Positions 33,976 to 62,123 of a DNA stretch of 64,000 bases are shown one piece after another; the first letter of the stretch is position 1, and every line of letters starts with the position of its first letter. The notes beneath the pieces are model-generated. The model was given only the letters and a program-made list of their open reading frames with translations. It ran no database searches and was not told the DNA's origin. The DNA lies in IMG/VR virus record IMGVR_UViG_3300029651_000001, positions 22,512 to 86,511 of that record; one strand, given 5' to 3'. The DNA is from a virus. The position numbers and the translations under genes were made by a program.

Positions 33976-35448
33976 ATGGCAGCTCCGAAAAGGACTTCTA
34001 AAGGGTCTGTAGACCCTATAAAGCTTCCTAACTCCCTTATTAAAGGGGTCAGGACGGCGACCCCGGCGTCAGGAAAGGATGCCGATTCGTCTATTTCCAA
34101 CACACTGACTTCGGCCTTCAACAGGTCGATTACAGATCTCCGCACCCTCGAGGATAAAGAGGCATTGCGCCTGCTTGCTCGAGCCTACGGAGATGTCTCG
34201 ACAGCAGTCTGGTCTACCTTGAGCCTGGCGAACACGCCGTTGAAGGTGCTGGCCTACGACAGCCAACATCAGATCAGCTTCGACGGCACGATGCTGACCA
34301 AGACGATCCTGACTCGGATGAATTACACGTCGGACTACACCAAAGGGTTCGACGATCGGCCGTCTCTGGAAGGGATCAAAAACTCTCTTCTGAGAGACAT
34401 CCTTCTGGCGGGCGCGTGCGGGGGAGAGTTGGTTCTCGATGAACAACGCCTCCCCAACCAATTCAGAGTCACATCAACCAAGACTCTTAAGTTCAAGACC
34501 GGTACCAAACGGAGTGGTACGTCCTACAACATTGTGCCAGTGCAGAAAGTAGGCTCTGACGAAGTCATACTTAGTTTCCCCACCTTTTTCTATGAGGCTT
34601 TGGATCAGGATCCGGAGTCCGCGTACGCGTTCTCGCCTCTTGAGCCGGCACTGAATTCGGCTCCGCAGTACACGGAGTTGCTGGAGGATGTTCGCCGAGT
34701 GGTCCGGCGGTCCGGACATTCCCGCCTAGTGGTCAAACTGATCACTGAACAGATCATTAAATCTGCACCGCCGGAATACAAAGGTGACCCGGACAAGATG
34801 CAGACCTGGATGACCACGCTGCGGGACCAGATTAAGGAGGAACTGGAGAACCTGAGCCCGGAAACGGCGTTGGTGTTGTTCGATACGCTGGAGGCCGACT
34901 ATCTCAATTCCCAGATTGGCGGACAGTCAGAGTATGGGCCGTTGGTCGAAACTTTTGACGGGGTTCAGTCCACAGCACTCAAGACACCTCCCTCGGTTCT
35001 GGGCAAACGGATGGGGGGGTCCCAGAACGTCTCATCCACTGAGTCGCTGCTTTTCATCAAGACCGCATCAAGAATCCAACCCCCTGTCGCTGCGGTGCTA
35101 TCTAGGGCGATGACCCTAGCCGTCCGGCTCTACGGGTTCGACGGGTACGTGATGGTCTCATTTGACCCAATCGATTTGCGGCCGGAGCACGAGCTCGAAG
35201 CCTTCAAGCAAATGAAACAGCAGAGGGTGTTGGAGCTCTTGTCACTCGGGTTCCTGACTGACGACGAGGCCGCGGAGGAGTTGCGCACCGGGATGAGAGC
35301 CCCGGGAGCGCCCAAGTTGAGCGGGACATTCTTCTACCAAAACCAAGGATTAGGAGCCCCTCCCAACCCAAACGGGGACCCCGCTAAGCGGGCGTTAACC
35401 GGCGACTCTCCGAAGTCCAGCGGAGGTCGGGACAATGCACAAAGGTGA
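33976..35448 (+). CDS. portal protein
   Basis: 490 aa, located between the terminase and the S49 protease. Confidence 0.75.
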   Translation: MAAPKRTSKGSVDPIKLPNSLIKGVRTATPASGKDADSSISNTLTSAFNRSITDLRTLEDKEALRLLARAYGDVSTAVWSTLSLANTPLKVLAYDSQHQISFDGTMLTKTILTRMNYTSDYTKGFDDRPSLEGIKNSLLRDILLAGACGGELVLDEQRLPNQFRVTSTKTLKFKTGTKRSGTSYNIVPVQKVGSDEVILSFPTFFYEALDQDPESAYAFSPLEPALNSAPQYTELLEDVRRVVRRSGHSRLVVKLITEQIIKSAPPEYKGDPDKMQTWMTTLRDQIKEELENLSPETALVLFDTLEADYLNSQIGGQSEYGPLVETFDGVQSTALKTPPSVLGKRMGGSQNVSSTESLLFIKTASRIQPPVAAVLSRAMTLAVRLYGFDGYVMVSFDPIDLRPEHELEAFKQMKQQRVLELLSLGFLTDDEAAEELRTGMRAPGAPKLSGTFFYQNQGLGAPPNPNGDPAKRALTGDSPKSSGGRDNAQR

Positions 35449-57880: not shown

Positions 57881-58257
57881 TGACTGACGAGGTGAACAAG
57901 GCCTGGAAGGGCCGCACGGACGAAAGACTAGCCGATGAGATCAGCAAGCTCTCGTCCCCCGAGAAAAAGAAGAACCAGACCTTAGGCCCAGCACGGTCGA
58001 CAAAGTCGATCGAGGCCAGCATTGGGATAGGCAAATTAACTGTCGCAGACGTGGGGACTGGTTCCGGAAGTGGTGGAGGAATTGCACCCCCTCTGACTGA
58101 GGAGGATGTCTCCCAGCGGGTTTATTGGGATGACCAAGTCAGCACGTCTTCAGATGGGCTGTTCACCATTGAAGTCTCCCCGATACAATCGATCACGTTG
58201 ATGGATGCAAACGGCAACCCAGTGGTCATCAACTTTGCTGAACCTAACCTATTATGA
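57880..58257 (+). CDS. tail-tip accessory protein
   Basis: 125 aa with an ATGA junction. Confidence 0.6.
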   Translation: MTDEVNKAWKGRTDERLADEISKLSSPEKKKNQTLGPARSTKSIEASIGIGKLTVADVGTGSGSGGGIAPPLTEEDVSQRVYWDDQVSTSSDGLFTIEVSPIQSITLMDANGNPVVINFAEPNLL

Positions 58258-59957
58258 GTCACCCGGACATGAAGCGACAACTGGGAAAGCTTCAGGTATG
58301 GGGCAACCCACTGCACGGATTGGTTAAGGGAGGTAAGCTCTGGCTTCCGGAAACCACTCAGCCGGCGATTTCTGGCGGCAACTACTACCTAGCCAATGGT
58401 TTGCAATGCTTTTGGGACGCAGCGGAGGGTCGATATTACCTCCCTTGTGAGCAGCCTCATGGAGTGGTGTACTCCGAGTATGGTAGAGCTTTACGGCTTA
58501 AGCGCCCCGGCTGGACTGCGCCGAGCCGAACGGCTGGACAACTGGCTGAAGACGAGATCAACGGGTTCTCGTGGCGTCCAGAATCTATAATGTCAGGCGC
58601 CAGAGGGAAGATTTACCGGAAAGATACGTTTGGTTCGTGGGTATACTTTGCTAGTGATAACTCAAGGTGGTTGGTCAAGATTACGTCGGTTGCAGTTAAT
58701 TCTTCGGCCAACAACGCCACTATGGCCATCACGATGGTCCGGTTCGGGGAGTTTGGCAAAGCGCCGGAAAGTAAAAACTACACAATTGAATGGGAGGATA
58801 TTGGGGGGTCCTTCTCTCCACTGCCGTCCGGATGGGCCATAGTTAATGATTGGTTGTTGGAGGATTGCAAGTCGGATGGGTCCGTTGCAGTATTCTCTAT
58901 CCGTGCGAGATATGTAGGCTCAGATGTTTTCTGGCAATCCGGAGTTTCTTCCGACTTAAAGACCCACCAACGAGCAGCATCCCTTATATCCCTGACCATC
59001 GACTATAACTCTCTCAGTTCGGAGTTCTCGTTCACCCCATCAGTTCACTTGCCATACAGTTCCGTTAGAGGATCTAACACATTGTTGAACAATGGTAGTC
59101 AGGTAACCTATGACAAGATAGCAACTGTAGTCCCCAACGAGCAGTGGGTGCGAGGGCTAACGACCACCTACCAAAGATCAAGCTCAGTAACAGATATTGT
59201 GTTGGGCGGGTTTTTTGATGACAATGATGTTTTCCAGGTAGTTAAAGTCAACAGTGAATCCGCGATGAGCGGTGAAGGTTCGATGACCCCCTTACCCGAT
59301 GAAGCACCTAGTTGGAGTGGATCTGCGTCCTCCACTCACTCAGGCACATTTTCTCTCTCCTTATGGTTAAATGATGAAAATCTTTACTCAGTCCCGGTTA
59401 CCTATTCTGCCGAGGAGCATAAGGATTTTTCCTGGGCCGGGTTTGTTCCTGTCGGTACCACAATAGGTTCAGTAACAACCTCAAAAACTTGGAATGCTCT
59501 AGGTCAACAAGGCACTCTTGAAACTACTGACGTAGTTTCGGTTCTTGCATCTCCCGTTGGAACTTTCACTATAGGCGCAGGTCCAAATCCCCTCCCAGGC
59601 ATCATGCCTGATGTACAAGGTTTGTCTTTTAATGCTGGGTTTTCTTCTCCTGTGTCTACCTATGATGGGTGGATAGCCTTCGAGACTGGATCTAGTCAGC
59701 TTGATCGACAGGACATCATCCCGATTATCCTAAGACCATCTAACAAATTGTTCGTAATTGTTTTAGGTATCCTCACAACAACACTGAATAATGGGGCGCC
59801 TGTCGGATCCAGTGTGGAGTATATCTCTGCAATAGCTGTTCACCCGGCGGGGACGACCGAACTCCCTGGTCCATTTGATGCTCTCCCAGTCTATGGGTCA
59901 TACGACCCCTACACGCAGGAAGTAGCTGTAGGGACAGAGCCGATGTGTTTCGTGTGA
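58254..59957 (+). CDS. tail fibre/receptor-binding candidate
   Basis: 567 aa. Last gene of the late operon. Confidence 0.65.
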   Translation: MSHPDMKRQLGKLQVWGNPLHGLVKGGKLWLPETTQPAISGGNYYLANGLQCFWDAAEGRYYLPCEQPHGVVYSEYGRALRLKRPGWTAPSRTAGQLAEDEINGFSWRPESIMSGARGKIYRKDTFGSWVYFASDNSRWLVKITSVAVNSSANNATMAITMVRFGEFGKAPESKNYTIEWEDIGGSFSPLPSGWAIVNDWLLEDCKSDGSVAVFSIRARYVGSDVFWQSGVSSDLKTHQRAASLISLTIDYNSLSSEFSFTPSVHLPYSSVRGSNTLLNNGSQVTYDKIATVVPNEQWVRGLTTTYQRSSSVTDIVLGGFFDDNDVFQVVKVNSESAMSGEGSMTPLPDEAPSWSGSASSTHSGTFSLSLWLNDENLYSVPVTYSAEEHKDFSWAGFVPVGTTIGSVTTSKTWNALGQQGTLETTDVVSVLASPVGTFTIGAGPNPLPGIMPDVQGLSFNAGFSSPVSTYDGWIAFETGSSQLDRQDIIPIILRPSNKLFVIVLGILTTTLNNGAPVGSSVEYISAIAVHPAGTTELPGPFDALPVYGSYDPYTQEVAVGTEPMCFV

Positions 59958-59970
59958 GCGCGTAAAGCAC

Positions 59971-60561
59971 TTATTCCTTTCTGACTCTCCCTGCCGGCGT
60001 CATAGTCAAGGTTTTTGTGCTATGGGGCCACGTCATCGTCAGCGTGTACGATATGATCTCATTCGGAGCCCCGGATGTGGCTGACCCTGACATGTCGTAA
60101 CCGAGGGAATACGTCGTGGAGCCATCTGGCTTGGTCAAGGAAACCGCTGCTTTCGGCGCGTCCATCACTTTCAGTATTTCATCACACAAACCCTTCAGCT
60201 TTTTGGCCGCGTCACAGCTAGCGTCGTAATCGTAGGCTAGGTTGCGATTCACGTCGACGAAGGTCATAACCCCCTTACTCCAATCTGAACCACACTCCTT
60301 GCCAGGACTGTCGACAGCTACACTCTCGTCCGTGGCGCACAAAGCCACCACTTTTCCTCGCTTGATAGCTTCGGATCTTGCGAACGCAAGATGGGACAAC
60401 CAGCTGTTGACTTCGGCGGAGGCCCGGTTCCTTTGCAGCATGTCGTTGAATGACGGCACCCCAATGGTTAGTAAAATAGCCGACACAGCTATCGTTACCA
60501 TAAGCTCGATCAGTGTTACGCCCCTCATACGCACCCCTACAAAATGCCACAGGGTAAGCAT
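59971..60561 (-). CDS. FimT/GspH-family minor (pseudo)pilin with a prepilin leader
   Basis: Motif RG|VTLIELMVTIAVSAILLTIGVPSF is a type IV prepilin cleavage/methylation motif. Confidence 0.8.
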   Translation of the reverse strand: MLTLWHFVGVRMRGVTLIELMVTIAVSAILLTIGVPSFNDMLQRNRASAEVNSWLSHLAFARSEAIKRGKVVALCATDESVAVDSPGKECGSDWSKGVMTFVDVNRNLAYDYDASCDAAKKLKGLCDEILKVMDAPKAAVSLTKPDGSTTYSLGYDMSGSATSGAPNEIISYTLTMTWPHSTKTLTMTPAGRVRKE

Positions 60562-60678
60562 AGTTCATGTGACAAATTTGTGCCTTTGCACAATGCCACA
60601 CATGTATGTTAACGCCGGTGTTGCAACGGTCGGCCTGCGTTAACTCCTTGATTTAACTATACTTCACATTATGTAGGA

Positions 60679-60726
60679 GCATTCATAATGCGGGTGTCGG
60701 CGGTTCAAGTCCGCCCGTAGCTACCA
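60679..60726 (+). other. 3' fragment of a tRNA with CAU anticodon (Met or Ile2 type), candidate attP core
   Basis: GCA-TTCATAA-TGCGG-GTGTC-GGCGG-TTCAAGT-CCGCC-CGTAGCT-A-CCA. No matching 5' acceptor, D arm or full anticodon stem lies upstream. Confidence 0.7.
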
Positions 60727-60742
60727 AGTTTTTCAACGACTT

Positions 60743-60771
60743 AGGCCCACTTTATGTGGGCCTTTCTTTTG
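60743..60771 (+). terminator. rho-independent terminator downstream of the tRNA fragment
   Basis: AGGCCCAC-TTTAT-GTGGGCCT followed by TTCTTTTG. Confidence 0.7.
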
Positions 60772-60813
60772 TGGTTGTACCATTTTTGTGCTATTTCCTC
60801 CTTTTTAGTCCCC

Positions 60814-61005
60814 ATGACCCATCGGGACGAAGAAAGCATCTTCGATGCCCAAAGTCTTCCTCTCCCAAAAGGCGTCAGGAATGAAGTCGATGTTTGCGAG
60901 GAGCTTTCCATGAACTATGTCGACTACCTCGTGGCACCGGGCAAAGGTCCTACCCACCCCGATGCCTTGAAGCTCACCGTTGACGACCTTGTGGAGTTGA
61001 TCTAA
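60814..61005 (+). CDS. doubtful small ORF
   Basis: Start MTHRDEESIF with no clear SD. An equally long antisense ORF (60805..61017) exists, so strand and reality are unresolved. Confidence 0.25.
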   Translation: MTHRDEESIFDAQSLPLPKGVRNEVDVCEELSMNYVDYLVAPGKGPTHPDALKLTVDDLVELI

Positions 61006-61013
61006 GTCGGTAA

Positions 61014-62123
61014 TCAACGCACTCTCCTATTCAAATTGATCAGCGTCAGCTCCGGCGCCTGATCCCGCTCACACAGTTTCTCGACGGCGTTGATTAAATT
61101 CCGTATCTCGGCAGCCGAGTAGTGTGTGGTGATCCGGCCGGACTTGTGCCCCATAAGATCCTGCCGATCCTCGAGACTCACTTCAGCCGATCGGAGTCGT
61201 CTTCCGAACGTGTGGCGAAGATTGTGAGGACCCGACAATACAAGCTTCCCCGTAGGCAACCCGGCCTCTCGCCAGGCTTGTCGCCAAGCCCTGTTGTTCA
61301 TCCTATCCAACCGACTCCCTTTGTAAGGGAAGACGTAAGTTTCATCGATTCCTCGTTGAGCTTCGATCACCGATCTCGCCACTTTATTTAAAGGGACGAT
61401 GCGCTCCACCGCCTTTCCCTCCTGCCCTTTGACGACCCATTCCGGCAAGATGAAGACCGAGGTGCCGAGCGTCGGGAGTTTCTCCTCCCACTCCCAGCGA
61501 AGCTGGCAGATTTCCTGCTCCCGGCACCCGGTATTCACCGCGAACAAAGCCATGTTCGCCAGATACTCCGGCAGCAACTTGAAGAGCTTCCCTTGCTCCT
61601 CCCATGACAAGGGGTAAGGTCTTCGTTTAGGTCCTACTACATTGATGATCTTCGGGGCTGTTTCCAACCACGTCTTGCCGGTCAGCTCATCTCGCCAGAG
61701 GGTCGCCGCCAGGTTCAGGATGTTCCTGACAACGGCGAGGTCCCGGTTTATCGTACCGGCGGCAATCCCGGCCGCCCTCCTGTCCTTGATGAACTGGGAT
61801 AGGGAGCCCATATGGACCTGTTCCAAAGTGAGTTTATTCAAATACTCGTCCAACAAGGTGATCGAGACTGCGTCGCGATCGATACTCTTCTTTCTAGCCT
61901 CCTCCAGATACTTCACTGCAGCCTGTACCCACGTCCTTGTGGGGCGAACACCGTGAACTACCTGACGTTCGATCTCGGCGAGCCGCCTTGCGAGGTAAGC
62001 TTCCGCCCTTTCGATCTCGCGTTCGCCAGTGCTTTCTCTAAGCGGTCCATATCCTTTGACGTTCTTTCGGACATGCCAGATGTTACCGCGGAGGGTAAGA
62101 CCCGGGGTTTTTCTCTTTGACAT
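61014..62123 (-). CDS. int: tyrosine recombinase (phage integrase)
   Basis: 369 aa with motifs NTGCREQE, HNLRHTFGRRL and LMGHKSGRITTHY. Confidence 0.92.
   Translation of the reverse strand: MSKRKTPGLTLRGNIWHVRKNVKGYGPLRESTGEREIERAEAYLARRLAEIERQVVHGVRPTRTWVQAAVKYLEEARKKSIDRDAVSITLLDEYLNKLTLEQVHMGSLSQFIKDRRAAGIAAGTINRDLAVVRNILNLAATLWRDELTGKTWLETAPKIINVVGPKRRPYPLSWEEQGKLFKLLPEYLANMALFAVNTGCREQEICQLRWEWEEKLPTLGTSVFILPEWVVKGQEGKAVERIVPLNKVARSVIEAQRGIDETYVFPYKGSRLDRMNNRAWRQAWREAGLPTGKLVLSGPHNLRHTFGRRLRSAEVSLEDRQDLMGHKSGRITTHYSAAEIRNLINAVEKLCERDQAPELTLINLNRRVR

Follow-up and report, generated by a model that had tools for sequence, protein, structure and literature searches.

A phage-borne minor pilin of the FimT/FimU family coupled to a variable tail-fibre gene in a Methylocaldum phage: a candidate for receptor replacement

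The pilin gene and its position beside the attachment site

The window, meaning the whole 64,000-nt stretch of DNA that was analysed, covers the final 64 kb of a virus contig of 86,511 bp, which starts and ends inside a 135-bp tandem repeat. The phage is temperate and siphovirus-like, and about 86.5 kb long. A leftward gene at 59971–60561 (minus strand; ORF of 196 aa as annotated) was identified by profile and fold as a prepilin gene of the GspH/FimT/FimU family, and it was the sole prepilin-like gene in the phage. Its stop region is 13 bp from the stop of a rightward, convergent gene for a 567-aa protein (58254–59957, plus strand). This is the last tail gene, presumed to encode the distal fibre or receptor-binding protein, and it is hypervariable between lineages. 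The first-pass annotation had placed a leftward gene 13 bp from the end of the rightward late operon and about 120 bp from an att-like site. Both distances held when measured (13 and 117 bp), and the tRNA-like site proved to be a real tRNA-Met 3′ end.

The att core (60679–60726, plus strand) is made up of the final 48 nt at the 3′ end of tRNA-Met(CAU) and reaches from the anticodon stem as far as the CCA. In a 185,579-species representative collection, a 44-nt piece of the core had exact matches in two genomes only, both Methylocaldum, and in both the match is the end of a full tRNA-Met gene with agreement at all 48 nt. A tyrosine integrase gene (61014–62123, minus strand) lies beside attP. 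Between the two is a 70-aa ORF (60805–61017, minus strand) that overlaps the integrase stop and is called on every contig; it had no family match. On the integrase side of attP, right after the tRNA-Met fragment, there is a phage-supplied terminator hairpin of 8 pairs with a T-run (60743–60763, plus strand), and integration would rebuild the tRNA-Met with this downstream terminator from the phage.

At least 24 contigs, drawn from several metagenomes, encode the identical pilin protein. Most of these contigs carry the integrase, the 70-aa ORF, att and the pilin gene with phage DNA on both sides, which is the attP form, and two further contigs break inside the att core. One 93-kb contig (L002) is the integrated form, in which host DNA begins exactly after CCA and matches the sequence that follows tRNA-Met in Methylocaldum sp. 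GT1BB at 92% identity. The attP-form contigs and L002 together show that the phage integrates at tRNA-Met of Methylocaldum, and that the pilin gene is phage-borne and is the outermost gene on the attR side of the prophage, reading inward. The host flank of L002 (1080–6608) also contains a second, degenerate tRNA-Met 3′ end about 5.5 kb beyond attR, ParE and PIN toxin–antitoxin genes and integrase fragments, and it resembles the decayed remnant of an island that lies in tandem at this tRNA-Met.

The position had also been described as that of a classic moron. The opposite strand and the place beside att agree with this description, but the composition is ordinary, and a scan of the pilin gene's strand found no consensus sigma-70 promoter and no terminator. 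The GC content of the gene was 0.530 compared to a phage mean of 0.555 (z −0.9), with z values of −0.1 for GC3 and −0.6 for codon usage. The comparison with the rest of the phage that had been proposed at first pass thus spoke against a compositionally foreign gene and gave no sign of a recent foreign origin.

The pilin gene is preceded by a non-coding leader that is also its putative promoter region (60562–60678, minus strand). This leader is conserved in part in the related phage lineage B described below, and it contains a TATAGT −10-like hexamer at 60656–60661. A perfect 16-bp palindrome, TTGTGC-CTTT-GCACAA, lies at 60578–60593, 17–32 bp upstream of the annotated start, with a half-site spacing akin to that of Crp/Fnr-type sites. 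Apart from one site with a single mismatch at 34532, TTGTGC-N4-GCACAA is unique in the window, and because it is not repeated elsewhere we do not call it an operator. A separate leader motif, CCTTTGGAGA, had 29 sites in the window at no more than one mismatch, compared to 5 expected. Nearly all of them lie in the left 27 kb and in the operon close to the integrase, on the minus strand of the leftward, early genes. The window scan that gave these 29 sites found none at the pilin gene, which would fit a separate control of this gene.

Prepilin signal, family and fold

The N-terminus of the pilin reads MRG/VTLIELMVTIAVSAILLTIGVP and is a class III signal in which Gly occupies −1, Glu +5 and Pro +22. 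Cutting after G14 (annotated numbering) leaves a mature protein of 182 aa that starts with V15. The prepilin peptidase site and the mature start are encoded at 60505–60522 (minus strand) as G(−1)/V(+1) T L I E(+5), where N_methyl matches. The pilin has the basic leader, the Gly, the hydrophobic residue at +1, the Glu at +5 and the hydrophobic helix of about 20 residues that characterise type IV prepilins, and E19, L20 and P36 were invariant in a family alignment of 107 sequences. The annotated start, ATG 60561, gives a 14-aa leader and lacks a Shine–Dalgarno sequence. ATG 60528 has GGGG five bases upstream, and the ATGs of two related phage pilin genes align with GTG 60534. This alignment and the upstream GGGG favour a short leader of 5 aa (GTG 60534) or 3 aa (ATG 60528), and one of these two codons is probably the true start. 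A 185-aa form called from ATG 60528 is also present in the protein collection, and the mature pilin is identical whichever start is used.

The first-pass annotation had assigned the gene to the GspH/FimT family from its N-terminal motif and had proposed Pfam profiles as a check. The two N-terminal strings quoted for the ORF were correct, the cleavage motif is intact, and both profiles were matched above their cut-offs, N_methyl (PF07963) with 25.1 bits against 21.2 and GspH (PF12019) with 38.8 bits against 21. The NCBIfam prepilin model IV_pilin_GFxxxE (TIGR02532) was matched as well, with 25 bits against a cut-off of 16.3. An AlphaFold2 model built with 107 homologues had a pLDDT of 90.5 and a pTM of 0.80, and it confidently predicts a complete pilin fold with a FimU/EpsH-type two-sheet globular domain. 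When the model was compared to solved structures with Foldseek, the best and only significant matches were to FimU of Pseudomonas aeruginosa (4IPU/4IPV; E ~1e-6, TM 0.68–0.70), followed by Vibrio cholerae EpsH (2QV8; E 2e-2). FimU also ranked first against the profile of the pilin family (2.3e-12). A Foldseek search of viral predicted structures gave no significant match, and no close relatives of the pilin were found in the collections of virus contigs and genome contigs. In a search of 5.8 billion sequences, the next-best proteins were cellular, named FimT and at most 43% identical over most of the length.

The pilin shares an ARSEA-type helix and the first Cys pair with FimU of P. aeruginosa PAO1. 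It differs from FimU in having only 16% identity in the structural alignment, in lacking a disulphide of the C127–C158 type and in not heading a pilVWXY1E operon. Two GspH/FimT paralogues are encoded in each of the two Methylocaldum genomes, and in GT1BB both stand ahead of a pilV-type gene. One paralogue is of a FimT type (L014 in GT1BB and L013/P0122 in a MAG). It is one of the nearest relatives that the phage pilin has, with 39–40% identity over 140–159 aa in the globular domain. The other, of a FimU type (L015 and L016), aligns with the phage pilin over the N-terminal helix only. By these alignments, the phage pilin appears to be nearest to the FimT-type paralogue of the host and not to the FimU type.

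The Pfam family that the pilin belongs to is named GspH and EpsH was the second structural match, so the protein could in principle mimic a pseudopilin of type II secretion (GspH) and act on the secretion system rather than on pili. The type II pseudopilus had indeed been listed as a possible target at first pass. However, the pilin reached only 26 bits with the GspH equivalog TIGR01708, which has a cut-off of 80, and 15.7 bits with the XpsH model, which has a cut-off of 160. FimT is the name given to the best homologues, the paralogues in the host that come closest stand before pilV-like genes at the head of pilV-type operons, and the structural match to FimU is far better than that to EpsH (E 1e-6 compared to 2e-2). 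We therefore regard an action on type II secretion as extremely unlikely.

A variable block of fibre and pilin genes in related phages

Of the 98 ORFs taken as genes, the one for the 567-aa fibre ranks second-lowest in GC content (0.496), and its GC3 (0.491) is very low as well. The protein had no Pfam or PHROG match and no recognisable domain, and past about 170 residues it could not be aligned with its positional homologues in two related lineages, B and C, the phage of the window being lineage A. It looks like a swapped receptor-binding module.

The comparison of fibre and pilin rests on these three lineages. In lineage B (L025; IMG/VR 3300020131_000074), the J-like protein, orf142 and orf125 were 78%, 76% and 63% identical to those of lineage A, and the fibre was 33% identical over the first 170 residues only. 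The lineage B pilin gene (179 aa, with GspH and N_methyl matches) is convergent with the fibre gene, and its product is 35% identical to the lineage A pilin. The att region of this lineage is followed by Methylocaldum-like host DNA, and the integrase beside att is intact with 335 aa. In lineage C (L029), orf142 was 70% identical and the fibre was unalignable. The lineage C pilin gene (172 aa, again with GspH and N_methyl matches) is convergent with the fibre gene and does not lie beside att. The pilin genes of B and C each overlap the fibre stop by 4 nt, compared to the gap of 13 bp in A. Among the three lineages, the identities were 46–78% for the J-like protein and 59–76% for orf142, compared to 35–49% for the pilin and 33% (N-terminal part) or none for the fibre. 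Judged by these identities, the pilin and the fibre are far more diverged than the neighbouring tail genes (46–78%). As far as gene order tells, the conserved feature is the linkage of the pilin gene to the fibre gene and not its closeness to att.

At the nucleotide level, similarity between A and B ends at 58055 and resumes at 60623, and fibre and pilin therefore form one variable block. This block (58056–60622, no strand assigned) had no detectable nucleotide similarity between the two lineages and holds the fibre gene, the pilin gene and the immediate upstream region of the latter. It is flanked by tail genes with 68–72% nucleotide identity on one side and by the att region with 84% on the other.

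Six more distant relatives (orf142 identity of 63–68%), one of which is a Methylococcus mesophilus prophage, have no pilin gene. One distant relative carries another opposite-strand gene after the last tail gene (L034, 8722–9474, minus strand; 250 aa with a weak HTH_3 match), and this suggests that the slot is a general insertion point for accessory genes. A search for phage relatives by means of orf296 found none, and a metagenome scan with the J-like protein gave nothing beyond lineage B. An integrase-based search found one relative at 83%, with no pilin within the 600 bp that are present. Scanning IMG/VR with the pilin profile returned only lineage B, F10-like prophages and PilA-like genes. 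A tblastn search of phage GenBank records returned only matches to F10-like phages, confined to the N-terminal helix, and one to a large record named 'Acinetobacter phage MD-2021a', in which the match is annotated FimT. In a phylogeny of 68 sequences, the A and B phage pilins were not sisters in the best tree, but their monophyly was not rejected (p-AU 0.39), and neither was a clade with the Methylocaldum FimT type (p-AU 0.36). The tree is compatible both with one origin and with repeated capture of the phage pilins.

The pilin gene might be a neutral passenger, a host fimT copy that was gained long ago and is of no use to the phage, and this would agree with the more distant relatives that manage without it. 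Lineage A is nearly without polymorphism, so that selection on the pilin within this lineage is not measurable. We nevertheless consider a passenger very unlikely. The reading frame and all the pilin hallmarks are intact in three lineages despite 50–65% divergence, through which an unused gene would not stay intact, the gene is packed against the fibre gene with a 4-nt overlap or a 13-bp gap, and its GC content and codon usage are fully adapted to the phage.

Sequence peculiarities and a candidate function of the phage pilin

All the features associated with assembly, namely G−1, E+5, P22 and ARSEA, are present in the pilin, and the ARSEA helix motif is kept together with the first Cys pair (C75 and C90). 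Other positions are atypical. The residue at +1 is Val instead of Phe, and a near-invariant Trp at position 98 is replaced by Val. An insertion of about 13 residues compared to most relatives (60181–60243, minus strand) contains a second Cys pair, C116 and C126, and a short helix at 118–122. A comparable Cys-pair insertion was found in one Methylocaldum FimT-type paralogue, L013. At the C-terminus the protein ends in G-R-V-R-K-E (59974–59991, minus strand), which includes a GRxR motif. Since the pilin stops right after GRVRKE, it has no D-region disulphide; the C-terminal D-region Cys that it lacks is present in 99 of the 107 relatives. The host FimT-type copies keep the D-region Cys pair and head pilV operons, and L014 ends in GRLR. 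The phage pilin has neither the place at the head of an operon nor the D-region disulphide that mark a FimU.

A pilin with such deviations could be a dominant-negative poison that enters assembly and stalls priming, in which case lysogens would lose their pili and resist all pilus-dependent phages. The Val residues at +1 and at W98, the missing D-region Cys pair and the truncated C-terminus would all suit a poison. The same holds for the Pfam GspH score of 39 bits, which is far under the 82–85 bits of the host FimT-type copies, and over-expressed FimU has been reported to disrupt pilus assembly (PMC12952977). However, every residue that processing and packing are known to require is intact, the host FimU-type paralogue also has Val at +1, and the model is that of a complete and confident pilin fold. 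The loss of pili would also be costly, and a poison would not need to diversify along with the fibre. Taken with these points, poisoning of pilus assembly seems unlikely.

The C-terminus points in a different direction. The FimT of Legionella pneumophila is a DNA-receptor minor pilin with a GRxR motif whose two arginines are important when it binds DNA (Braus et al. 2022, PMC8897410). The phage pilin, which ends in PAGRVRKE, shows the same motif, and the two proteins also have in common the GspH/FimT fold family, the lack of a D-region disulphide and the fact that each is encoded by an orphan gene, apart from the genes of other minor pilins. The phage pilin may then manipulate DNA uptake by entering competence pili and blocking or altering DNA capture, and blocking would save the prophage from deletion by transformation with an empty site. 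It would further agree with manipulation of uptake that the nearest host paralogue is the GRLR-bearing FimT type, that the host encodes ComEC and that mobile elements are well documented to conflict with competence (PMC12378983). In contrast to the Legionella protein, ours is phage-encoded, and its motif is not kept in the sister lineages, which have GRAS (B) and GRMD (C) instead. The mature phage pilin is also not basic but mildly acidic, with a pI of 6.2 compared to 8.9 for the host GT1BB FimT, and an effect on uptake would leave the tight linkage to the fibre gene unexplained. We know of no natural transformation in Methylocaldum. On balance, an effect on DNA uptake is a rather doubtful explanation of the gene.

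The closest functional parallel comes from F10-like Pseudomonas prophages, which make a FimU-like protein, P-FimU, that becomes part of the pilus tip (Sztanko et al., Cell Rep 2026, PMC12952977). P-FimU leaves twitching intact and blocks the adsorption of tip-binding phages, and both P-FimU and the tail protein PTP4 are highly diverse and co-diversify (PMC12952977). The authors' searches of other phages found PilA-like proteins only (PMC12952977). Like the P-FimU of JBD68, F10 and LESphi2/3, phages of P. aeruginosa, the pilin described here is a prophage-encoded minor pilin of the GspH/FimT/FimU family with an intact prepilin signal, and both the pilin and a variable tail protein differ greatly from one related phage to the next. 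The same use is predicted for our pilin, replacement of a host tip subunit to exclude related phages. The two proteins differ in other respects. BLASTP aligned only residues 11–88, with 27% identity over 78 aa, and hhalign aligned 71 N-terminal columns. The similarity is thus confined to the N-terminal helix, which by sequence marks our pilin as an independent capture, and the analogy would be one of function and not of descent. The P-FimU gene is flanked by tail tube and chaperone genes, whereas ours follows the last fibre gene, reads from the opposite strand and, in lineages A and B, sits at attR. P-FimU has an extended C-terminus, and that of our pilin is truncated and lacks the D-region Cys. 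The nearest relative of our pilin is a host FimT-type paralogue and not FimU, and the phage differs too, with 86.5 kb, a tmRNA and a methanotroph host.

The gene encodes a phage-owned minor pilin of the FimT/FimU (GspH) family. We favour, at about even confidence, a reading in which this pilin replaces the receptor at the pilus tip as P-FimU does and excludes kin phages; exclusion by a prophage-supplied minor pilin had been suggested at first pass and now has an experimental precedent in P-FimU. In a lysogen, the prepilin would be inserted into the inner membrane and cut by the host PilD, and it would then take the position of the host FimT/FimU in the priming or tip complex of the type IV pili. 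The tip surface would change as a result, and phages of this group, for whose variable fibre it would be the binding site, could no longer adsorb. Superinfection would thus be excluded through replacement of the receptor, an effect demonstrated with the P-FimU of the F10-like Pseudomonas phages. This reading draws its support from the family and fold, the phage ownership, the PilD and the two fimT/U–pilV operons of the host, the co-variation of fibre and pilin in related phages, the P-FimU precedent and the lack of the CCTTTGGAGA leader. Against it, the fast variation of fibre and pilin could have separate causes, the more so as host minor pilins diverge fast too, and the six relatives with 63–68% identity in orf142 do without a pilin. 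The scan that found no consensus promoter, the fibre with no recognisable domain and the restriction of P-FimU similarity to the N-terminal helix also count against it. That pili serve as the receptor of this phage is a prediction of the reading; if receptor replacement is true, the phage group is predicted to adsorb to the tip of the type IV pilus.

Receptor replacement by a phage pilus subunit was described in 2026 and in one Pseudomonas phage group only. The present case would be an independent and non-orthologous one in phages of an environmental methanotroph, and the physical coupling of the pilin to the variable fibre suggests a general strategy in which fibre–pilin pairs may be inherited as a unit. 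In an extended form of the proposal, fibre and pilin would make up one exchangeable cassette of a receptor binder plus a receptor replacement, and the GRxR pilin of lineage A would also reprogramme the competence pilus, so that the lysogen would both exclude kin phages and refuse DNA that deletes the prophage. We consider this extended form quite unlikely.

On the host side, both Methylocaldum genomes encode PilD in addition to ComEC. Host minor pilins of either type were only 60–67% identical between the two genomes, compared to 88–92% for the flanking DNA, and the host minor pilins therefore also evolve fast. In GT1BB, L014 and L015 (at about 1.131 and 1.146 Mb of contig C2) head fimT/U–pilV operons that lie about 14 kb apart, with pilin-like matches between them.
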